Assembly (NCBI RefSeq): GCF_058153355.1
Contig: NZ_CM177019.1
Reading direction: 5' to 3' (one strand)
Length of the DNA stretch: 64,000 nucleotides
Positions 45,001 to 48,000 of the stretch are shown piece by piece; the first letter of the stretch is position 1, and each line of letters opens with the position of its first letter. Made by a program: the position numbers.

Positions 45001-48000
45001 AAACGTAGCGAAATTTGTTGCGCTGCACGGAACAATAGTGATAGTGTTCCTTTCGAAGGAACAAGGATGAAGAGATGATAATGAATTTCAGACACAAGGG
45101 ATTGCGTGACTTGTTTCTTCTCGGCAAAACCTCCGGCGTTATACCGACGCAAATCAAACGATTACGCCACCGACTCGCTGTGATTGATGCAGCAAGCTGT
45201 CTTGCTGATATCGATATGCCCGGTTACCGACTACACCCGTTAAGCGGCGATCGCGATGGAATTTGGGCGATATCTGTCTCGGGCAACTGGCGAATCACAT
45301 TTGAATTCGTCAATGGCGATGCATACATACTGGATTACGAGGACTATCACTGATGAAAATGGCCAATCATCCCCGCCCGGGGGACATTATTCAGGAATCA
45401 CTGGACGAGCTGAACGTCAGCCTGCGCGAGTTTGCCAGAGCAATGGAAATTGCGCCCTCAACGGCAAGCCGATTGCTGACCGGAAAAGCGGCATTGACGC
45501 CAGAAATGGCAATTAAACTTTCCGTGGTGATCGGCAGTTCGCCGCAAATGTGGCTGAATCTGCAAAACGCCTGGAGTCTGGCAGAGGCAGAAAAAACGGT
45601 AGATGTGTCGCGACTACGCCGTCTGGTTACGCAATAAAAAAATGGCGCCTTTTACAGCGCCATTTTCAGCTTAAAGTTCAAAAGAGATTATATCCCTTCT
45701 TCACTCTCTTTTTTCGCTTCTGCCTTTTCGATTTCACGATACCAGCGTGGATGGTGTTTCTTCGCCCAACGACGGCTCACCTTCCCTTCGATCATCCCTT
45801 TAATCGACCCTTTCACCCAGAATGCCATATACATATGGATCAGGATGGCGTGGATCAGGATGATACCCGCAGCCGCGTGAATAAACAGGCTATAACGGAC
45901 AACCTGTATCGGGAAGTACTGCGCAAAGTACGGACGCCAGATAATCACCCCGGTCACCAGCAGCACGAAAATCATGCTCATGATCGACCAGAACATCATC
46001 TTTTGCCCGGCGTTGTACTTACCAACATCCGCCACTTTGTGTTCATTGCCTTTTAATACTTCGACAATGTTCAACAGCCACGGAATATCTTTCTTATCCG
46101 GGATGTTGTGATGCACAAAACGCACAAACATAAACATCAGCGCGACGAAAATCGCAATGCCGAAGAACGGGTGCAAAATGCGTCCCATCTGCGGCGTACC
46201 GAAGGTTTGTGTCAGCCATTGCAGCGTCGGGAAGAAGAACGAAATCCCGGACAGCGCTACCAGGAAGAAGCAAATCACCACGGTCCAGTGACAGGCGCGA
46301 TCAATAAACTTGGTGCGCACAATCATTTTCGACTTACTCATGATGATCCTCCTCGTCATCGTCCACTTCCTTATTCGGGCCAATACCGATGTAGTGGAAA
46401 ATTAACCCGGCAAAAGTGGCGATAAAGCCAGCCGCTGCCAGCGGTTTCAACGCGCCTTTCCACAGATTTACCGATGTATCGATCTTCGGATCTTTCGGCA
46501 GACCGTGATACAGCTCCGGCTGATCGGCGTGATGCAGCACGTACATGACGTGCGTACCACCGACCCCTTCCGGGTTGTAGACGCCAGCATGTTCGTAACC
46601 ACGCGCTTTCAGTTTCGCCACGCGCTGTTCCGCCAGCTCCAGCATCTCCTTCTTGGTGCCGAAGTGGATAGCCCCGGTCGGACAAGTTTTCACACAAGCC
46701 GGTTCCTGACCAACGCTGACGCGATCGACGCAGAGTGTGCATTTATATACCCGGTTATCCTCTTTGTTGAGGCGTGGAATATTAAACGGACACCCGGCAA
46801 TGCAGTAACCACAGCCGATGCAGTTTTCCGACTGGAAATCGACAATCCCGTTAGCGTACTGAATGATTGCACCAGCAGACGGGCACGCCTTCAGGCAGCC
46901 CGGATCTTCACAGTGCATACAACCGTCTTTACGGATCAGCCACTCCAGCTTGCCGTTCTGTTCGGTTTCGCTAAAGCGCATCACCGTCCAGGACTTGGCG
47001 CTCAGATCGGCGGGGTTATCATAAACCCCGACGCAGTGCCCCACTTCATCACGGATATCGTTCCACTCCGAACACGCCACCTGACAGGCTTTACAGCCGA
47101 TACAGGTGGAAACGTCGATAAGTTTCGCGACTTCTGCTTTGTAATCACGCACCTGAGAAGGCGGCGTGATGGAGTTAGTTGCGGACCTTTTGATAATGTC
47201 CTGCGTTTCCATAGCCATCTGTTCGCCCCCTTACGCCTTCTCGATGTTGACTAAGAACGCTTTATATTCCGGCGTTTGCGAGTTTGCATCACCGACATTC
47301 GGCGTCAGAGTGTTAGCGATATAACCTTTACGCGCGACACCCTCAAAGCCCCAGTGGATTGGAATACCCACCGTTTCAACCTGCTGACCGTTTACATTCA
47401 GCGGTTTCAGACGGCGCGTTACCACAGCCACCGCGCGGATAAAGCCACGCTTGCTGGAGACAGTGACACGATCGCCATTGGCAATGCCTTTCGCCGCCGC
47501 CAGCGTTTCACTGATTTCCACAAACTGTTCCGGCTGAGCAATTGCGTTGAGCAACGCGTGCTTGGTCCAGGTGTGGAAGTGCTCGGTCAGACGATAGGTC
47601 GTACCCACATACGGGAACTGCTCTTTTTTACCCATCCGCAGCGCGTCTTGTTCATACAGACGAACAACCGGGTTAGACACCACGTTCGGATGCAGCGGGT
47701 TAGTGCCCAGCGGCGTTTCAATTGGCTCGTAGTGTTCCGGGAACGGACCTTCCGCCATTTTGTTGATGGCAAACAGGCGTCCCATCCCTTCCGGCTGCAT
47801 GATAAACGGCCCGGTTGGCGTACCCGGTGCGGCATTGCCGAAGTCCGGAATATCGTTACCCGTCCACTTGCTGCCGTTCCACTGGATCAGCATCCGTTTC
47901 GGATCCCACGGTTTACCGTTGATATCCGCCGAAGCACGGTTGTACAGCACGCGACGGTTGAGCGGCCACGCCCAGGCCCATCCCAGCGTATTCCCCAGAC

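Follow-up and report, generated by a model that had tools for sequence, protein, structure and literature searches.

Toxin-antitoxin pairs of the HigB/HigA family were first described on plasmid Rts1, where the gene of a toxin of 92 amino acids (aa) stands before that of a 104-aa antitoxin with an N-terminal helix-turn-helix (HTH) domain (PDB 4MCT, 4MCX, 4PX8, 4YPB, 6CHV). The Rts1 toxin, HigB of Proteus vulgaris, is a ribosome-dependent RNase in which activity depends critically on His54, Asp90, Tyr91 and His92 (PMC5027501), and in the recognition helix of P. vulgaris HigA the residues Thr37 and Arg40 contact DNA (PMC12266136, PMC6987408), with the sole base-specific contact made by Arg40 (PMC12266136). 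A pair of Escherichia coli has been named TA20, 'parE-2/higA-2', in strains NRG857c and CFT073, with strains HS and K-12 carrying the antitoxin only (Bustamante and Vidal 2020, PMC7232551), and a 2024 review lists this pair, from TADB 3.0, as higBA (TA027334). Here we describe the copy of the pair that lies in a stretch of 64,000 nucleotides of contig NZ_CM177019.1 (NCBI RefSeq assembly GCF_058153355.1), the whole of which is called the window below. We conclude, with a probability of about 0.9, that this copy is a type II toxin-antitoxin operon of the chromosome, that it belongs to the Rts1/Proteus HigB-HigA family and occupies a fixed, ancestral place in Escherichia, between adhP and fdnI, and that it acts by the mechanism proposed below.

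GraT-GraA of Pseudomonas putida (PDB entry 6F8S; PMC6987408) and HigB-HigA of Pseudomonas aeruginosa belong to the same families as the pair in the window, but their sequences lie much further off, with weaker PDB matches (E-values of 3e-07 for the 6F8S toxin and 2e-11 to 2e-08 for the antitoxins), and their operators are palindromes of the TTAAC-GTTAA type bound by two cooperative dimers (PMC6987408). In HigB-HigA of K-12 (YgjN-YgjM) the HTH of the antitoxin is C-terminal, whereas it is N-terminal in the window antitoxin and in HigA of CFT073 (PMC6987408); the pair did not prove to be of the YgjN-YgjM type, the presence of a K-12 HigBA structure in the PDB set searched being unchecked.

The pair as a HigB-HigA module

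An earlier note on this DNA had described a HigB-type toxin of 92 aa followed by an overlapping HTH antitoxin of 94 aa, in toxin-first order, and both open reading frames (ORFs) and both family assignments hold (Table 1). The toxin matches the Pfam family PF05015, HigB-like_toxin, with 64.4 bits (E = 1.4e-17; gathering score 27) over profile positions 2-91 of 91. Its residues 1-92 align without a gap to Rts1 HigB in PDB entries 4MCT, 4MCX, 4PX8, 4YPB and 5IXL (E-values of 1e-31 to 1e-29, the best being 1.2e-31), with 51 of the 92 residues (55%) identical. The three best PDB chains carry the Rts1 HigB sequence, and all the chains that match the toxin at E<=1 are named 'Killer protein', 'Host inhibition of growth B' or 'Endoribonuclease HigB'. 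In the alignment to Rts1 HigB, His54 and the C-terminal DYH of Asp90, Tyr91 and His92 are all kept, and so are Asn71 and Arg73; a loss of catalytic residues, which the earlier note had named as an outcome that would speak against it, was thus not found. Compared with the E. albertii gene, the toxin gene differs by eight synonymous changes and one nonsynonymous change (a ratio of nonsynonymous to synonymous differences, pN/pS, of ~0.04), and the protein is identical between E. albertii and one of the E. coli-labelled species representatives (L011). By these substitutions, the intact toxin is under purifying selection across Escherichia species.

The antitoxin scores 93.7 bits (E = 4.5e-27; cutoff 47.7) against the NCBIfam equivalog TIGR02607, antidote_HigA, and carries an N-terminal XRE-type HTH (Pfam HTH_3 over residues 14-65). 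All of its 94 residues are identical to those of the 'antitoxin HigA' in PDB 2ICP and 2ICT, which is HigA of E. coli CFT073 (PMC6987408), and to those of YddM of MG1655 (b1477, 'DNA-binding transcriptional regulator YddM'). It aligns without a gap to residues 7-87 of P. vulgaris HigA, and Thr37 and Arg40 therefore stand at the same positions in both proteins. The Rts1 pair differs from that of the window in being plasmid-borne, whereas the latter is chromosomal and vertically inherited, in the longer antitoxin, and in the sequence (TGTAAT/ATTACA as against GGAACA/TGTTCC) and half-site spacing of its operator repeats.

Among annotated E. coli records the same arrangement is well represented. 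Those with the pair name the two genes 'type II toxin-antitoxin system RelE/ParE family toxin' and 'yddM: HigA family addiction module antitoxin', and carriers include Nissle 1917, NRG857c and the type strain DSM 30083. The site between adhP and fdnI, as given in the earlier note, matches these records, and the coordinates of Bustamante and Vidal for TA20 fall at the same place. The pair of CFT073, NRG857c and Nissle 1917 agrees with that of the window in locus, in gene sizes, in the 1-nt overlap and in an antitoxin that is 100% identical, and the toxin of Nissle and NRG857c differs at 2 of the 92 residues; besides an insertion of ~178 bp with repetitive extragenic palindromic (REP) sequences between yddM and fdnI in Nissle, which the window is without, there is no substantive difference. 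Considering the RefSeq annotation, the TADB entry, the solved antitoxin structure and the published contrast with K-12, the pair is already known. The earlier note had held that an identical annotated pair in K-12 would make it a known module: K-12 has the antitoxin only, and the module is known all the same, being annotated in about a quarter of the complete E. coli genomes and published together with the orphan state of K-12, so that the reading of a HigB/HigA module is supported as right and its novelty is nil.

Candidate operator and promoter, and terminator

The GGAACA/TGTTCC inverted repeats reported earlier upstream of the toxin gene are present, and a third half-site follows them, so that two inverted repeats overlap (Table 1). 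Each of the two arrangements occurs once in the window as against 0.10 and 0.14 expected from shuffled sequences, a count that is weak taken alone, as 10-14% of the shuffles have one. The block of 35 bp is, on the other hand, kept in E. albertii, in Escherichia sp. MOD1-EC7003, in other E. coli and in the toxin-less allele of MG1655, and its conservation across alleles with diverged flanks is stronger evidence than the shuffle counts. It spans the putative -10 of a promoter that is itself a candidate, together with the start of transcription expected there, and the K-12 allele has the same hexamer spacing (TTGCGT-16-GATAGT). A SELEX (systematic evolution of ligands by exponential enrichment) study with RpoD holoenzyme reported a peak at yddM/adhP, labelled as an internal promoter (PMC3946193). 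More than one YddM dimer may be involved at the operator.

Downstream, the terminator that the earlier note had placed at the end of the pair folds on both strands, at -14.1 kcal/mol on the plus strand and -17.6 kcal/mol on the minus strand (z ~ -3.2). A simple consensus terminator scan did not call the hairpin, and the assignment comes from folding. As its tail on the plus strand has only four U, it would be a better terminator for the convergent fdnI than for the antitoxin gene. In an Rfam scan of 44700-45900 no RNA element was found, the single match, to STnc320, lying on this hairpin below threshold (21 bits as against 50). The insertion of ~178 bp between yddM and fdnI, seen in Nissle, K-12 and O157, contains the terminator hairpin once more, together with REP-like palindromes, whereas the window (45638-45690) and E. 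coli 2020CK-00188 have the short form with one terminator (compare L002 2439-2666 and L003 2121-2348).

The toxin-less K-12 allele and the ancestral state

The earlier note had K-12 carrying yddM at this place, with no toxin partner known to be annotated there, and this is so: in MG1655 yddM stands alone, its start 145 bp after adhP, with no toxin gene, and the protein and the neighbouring genes are those of the window. When the two alleles are aligned, the interval between adhP and the antitoxin gene is 463 bp in the window as against these 145 bp. The adhP terminator is common to both, and after it comes filler that cannot be aligned, which in the window is CT-rich and ~100 nt long and in K-12 measures ~43 nt; the K-12 sequence upstream of the operator is thus of a different haplotype. 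The alleles meet again in the operator block (GGAACAATAATGATAGTGTTCC...GGAAC in K-12), the part common to both being TTGTTGCG...GGAACAATA(G/A)TGATAGTGTTCC...GAAGGAAC, and in K-12 22 nt lie between the third half-site and the yddM ATG. In K-12, then, the orphan antitoxin still has the operator-like block and the candidate promoter ahead of it, and the toxin ORF is cleanly missing. An attempt to define the K-12 allele as a simple deletion gave no assignable junction, as the 22-nt linker resembles the toxin gene too weakly: an AGACAC match and a possible CAC microhomology between codons 7 and 92 are too short for significance.

Five loci came out of a scan for the operator pattern in which each species was represented by a single genome. 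The four long ones, in the E. albertii type strain (L009), in Escherichia sp. MOD1-EC7003 (L013) and in the E. coli-labelled species representatives L010 and L011, all have an intact pair, adhP adjacent to it and the intergenic haplotype of the window; fdnI follows in three of them, and the fourth ends inside the antitoxin gene. Since the pair is intact at this site in E. albertii too, the toxin-bearing state is most simply taken as ancestral to the genus and the state of K-12 and O157 as derived, as far as so small a sample suggests. The fifth locus (L012), a contig of 214 bp labelled Clostridium sp. CMCC3677, has the yddM promoter in its K-12 form and, with the encoded protein 100% identical, the 5' end of the gene; most likely this is E. 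coli DNA that contaminates the assembly.

Proposed mechanism

By homology with the Rts1 system, we propose that a single promoter would drive a bicistronic higB-higA(yddM) mRNA, with translational coupling through the ATGA overlap. HigB, as a ribosome-dependent mRNA endonuclease of the RelE fold, would enter the ribosomal A site and cut mRNA with His54, Asp90, Tyr91 and His92, and a YddM/HigA dimer would bind and neutralise it. Through its N-terminal HTH, YddM would also bind the GGAACA/TGTTCC half-sites that cover the putative -10 and the start of transcription and so repress the operon, and loss of the antitoxin would be expected to free the toxin and lead to translation arrest. Toxicity, neutralisation, the promoter and the half-sites bound are all predicted here from the family.

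Alternative explanations and decay of the toxin gene

Several results weigh against the reading of an active HigB-HigA operon. In the toxin, Lys57 of Rts1 HigB is replaced by Ser. Experiments with this E. coli toxin did not turn up in the literature, and the 2024 review calls the TADB-listed pairs still 'to be characterized'. A sigma-70 consensus scan returned no promoter at its threshold, for which reason the promoter is put forward only as a candidate. The half-sites are spaced (C to G) by 13 and 16 bp, as against ~6 bp between the contacted bases in the Rts1 operators, and the Rts1 promoter (L014 430-500) with its TGTAAT/ATTACA repeats has no sequence in common with that of the window; the Rts1 hig promoter was accordingly dropped as a guide for assigning half-sites, and with differing spacing and an unrelated promoter the recognition mode of the Rts1 operator is not transferable. 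The distribution of the toxin gene, which the species is losing, also speaks on this side. By megablast of the 1.2-kb region, the locus is present in 5413 of 5426 complete E. coli genomes, in its full-length form in 1319, and the toxin gene is found in 1328, being absent from ~76%. A single deletion of 1 bp, at G98 of the ORF (window 45172; L005 601-878, E. coli G749), is shared by 545 of these 1328 genomes; PGAP flags it as frameshifted, and the protein is cut short after residue 32. An intact toxin ORF is therefore present in at most ~14% of the complete genomes (1328 - 545, out of 5426), and the exact wild-type 39-mer at the G98 site in 611 genomes. With toxin loss and frameshift so widespread, the activity of the toxin is dispensable, and it may be attenuated in any given strain.

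These counts lend themselves to another reading, that of a remnant in decay: the ORF would be intact in the window and the toxin attenuated or silent, and YddM, as an ordinary autoregulated transcription factor, would be the functional unit, as in K-12. This is consistent with the absence of the toxin from about three quarters of the genomes and the frameshift in the 545 more, and with an in-frame deletion of 9 bp (L007 601-870, E. coli JA0265), which removes residues 25-27 in the TQVK segment and gives a product of 89 aa annotated as intact (WP_000605680.1). The YddM protein is, besides, unchanged in toxin-less strains, and that of K-12 is treated as a DNA-binding regulator. Yet the toxin of the window has all its catalytic residues, its gene is under purifying selection across Escherichia species, and the Shine-Dalgarno sequence and the layout for translational coupling are kept, so that we consider a remnant unlikely for this copy. 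One further allele is a mosaic: in a single record, E. coli O157:H7 TR01 (L006 690-850), the spacer of 145 bp between adhP and yddM consists of the left flank of the toxin haplotype, half a K-12-type operator and, fused to yddM, roughly the final 45 nt of the toxin ORF, and it is either a recombinant or an artefact of assembly or polishing.

Other readings concern the nature and the origin of the pair. The NRG857c name implies that the toxin is a ParE-type gyrase poison with a HigA antitoxin; Bustamante and Vidal place it in the 'ParE_toxin superfamily (cl21503)' and name it ParE-2 (PMC7232551), and the RefSeq protein to which it is identical, WP_000605673.1, is labelled RelE/ParE family toxin. 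That label holds at the superfamily level only. No ParE family was matched in Pfam or NCBIfam at E<=0.01, where HigB-like_toxin is the sole Pfam match and a weak RelE_StbE the sole NCBIfam match, the toxin shares 55% of its residues, end to end, with the RNase of Rts1 and has the four catalytic ones, and TADB lists the pair as higBA; we have therefore rejected the ParE label, and a gyrase poison seems very improbable. No more credible is the view that the module arrived recently as a mobile or plasmid-derived addiction cassette and is not a resident chromosomal locus. The family was first described on a plasmid and homologues occur on 540 plasmid records, but these homologues are less than 60% identical, which gives no sign of a recent mobile origin; the three matches above 90% are E. 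coli records (two of them of 385 kb and 4.9 Mb), which were looked at no further and not counted as evidence of mobility. Near-identical copies on plasmids or phages, or between repeats elsewhere in the chromosome, did not otherwise come to light. The same adhP-fdnI site and intergenic haplotype recur in E. albertii and Escherichia sp. MOD1-EC7003 as well as in diverse E. coli, and the ORF and repeat listings of the window show no integrase, insertion sequence element or repeats flanking the pair.

Features of the locus

The two ORFs share 1 nt, the toxin TGA and the antitoxin ATG meeting in TGATG, and each has a Shine-Dalgarno sequence (Table 1; ORF listing of 44700-45900). Upstream, adhP ends with its stop at 44889, and its terminator hairpin, which is kept in all the aligned alleles, marks the upstream boundary of the module.

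Table 1. Features of the toxin-antitoxin locus, with positions in the window
Feature	Position	Strand	Basis
adhP terminator hairpin (GCTGCGACT / AGTCGCAGC, then TGTTTTG)	44899-44926	+	inverted repeat; folds at -17 kcal/mol
Pyrimidine-rich tract CTCTTCTTCTTTTCCTCCCCCATCTTTCCTCTCACA	44957-44992
Putative sigma-70 promoter (-35 TTGCGC 45018-45023, 16-nt spacer, -10 GATAGT 45040-45045)	45018-45045	+	read from sequence
Operator-like block, three half-sites GGAACA-N10-TGTTCC-N7-GGAACA	45029-45063	.	sequence, repeat listing and conservation
Half-site 1, GGAACA	45029-45034
Half-site 2, TGTTCC	45045-45050
Half-site 3, GGAACA	45058-45063
Shine-Dalgarno sequence AAGGA, before the toxin ORF	45063-45067
higB-type toxin gene	45075-45353	+	92-aa ORF; PF05015
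Shine-Dalgarno sequence GAGGA, before the antitoxin ORF
higA/yddM gene, antitoxin and HTH repressor	45353-45637	+	94-aa ORF; TIGR02607
Shared terminator hairpin of the antitoxin gene and convergent fdnI (A7, 10-bp stem, T4)	45639-45666	.	folding

Between the adhP terminator and the operator lies a pyrimidine-rich tract that is limited to the toxin-bearing haplotype, that of E. albertii included; in K-12 the unrelated ~43 nt stand in its place. Over 44700-45900, only one of the 5415 matching records is at least 99% identical to the window, that of 2020CK-00188 (human rectal swab, USA), nearly all the others being 95-97% identical. The window would thus come from a sparsely sampled lineage of E. 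coli or carry an uncommon haplotype at this place.

Conservation of YddM and meaning of the locus

Among the window, Nissle 1917, MG1655 and the E. albertii type strain, yddM has no nonsynonymous differences as against 11-16 synonymous ones (a synonymous divergence of 0.16-0.23), with 0 and 11 between the window and K-12 and 0 and 12 between the window and E. albertii. The constraint is stronger on the antitoxin than on the toxin, and as the protein is invariant in spite of this synonymous divergence, the orphan antitoxin of toxin-less strains is under strong purifying selection. YddM of K-12 has been handled as a DNA-binding regulator, and the main text of a ChIP-exo (chromatin immunoprecipitation with exonuclease) study names no YddM targets (Gao et al. 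2018). In a screen of the Keio collection, a delta-yddM strain was hypersusceptible to epetraborole, an inhibitor of leucyl-tRNA synthetase (LeuRS), a result that is uncomplemented, the ASKA clone being unavailable (PMC12457515).

As YddM is kept with its operator in the ~76% of E. coli genomes that have no toxin, we tentatively raise a role of YddM that does not depend on the toxin, as a domesticated transcription factor or as 'anti-addiction' immunity against an Rts1-like plasmid HigB, while holding such a role to be possible and not the likelier case. As a discovery the window copy carries little weight, K-12 and most E. coli keeping the antitoxin only and the copy being intact but ordinary. 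Overall, one locus in one genus presents four states, namely the intact pair, a recurrent frameshift, an in-frame deletion and a clean loss of the toxin with antitoxin and operator kept, and its residual value is that of a natural series for the study of the decay of toxin-antitoxin modules. Only one thing is mildly interesting, the perfect conservation of the orphan antitoxin and its operator after toxin loss, which hints at a toxin-independent role of YddM; if such a role is real, the intact pair of the window would represent the ancestral state of a module in the middle of its domestication.

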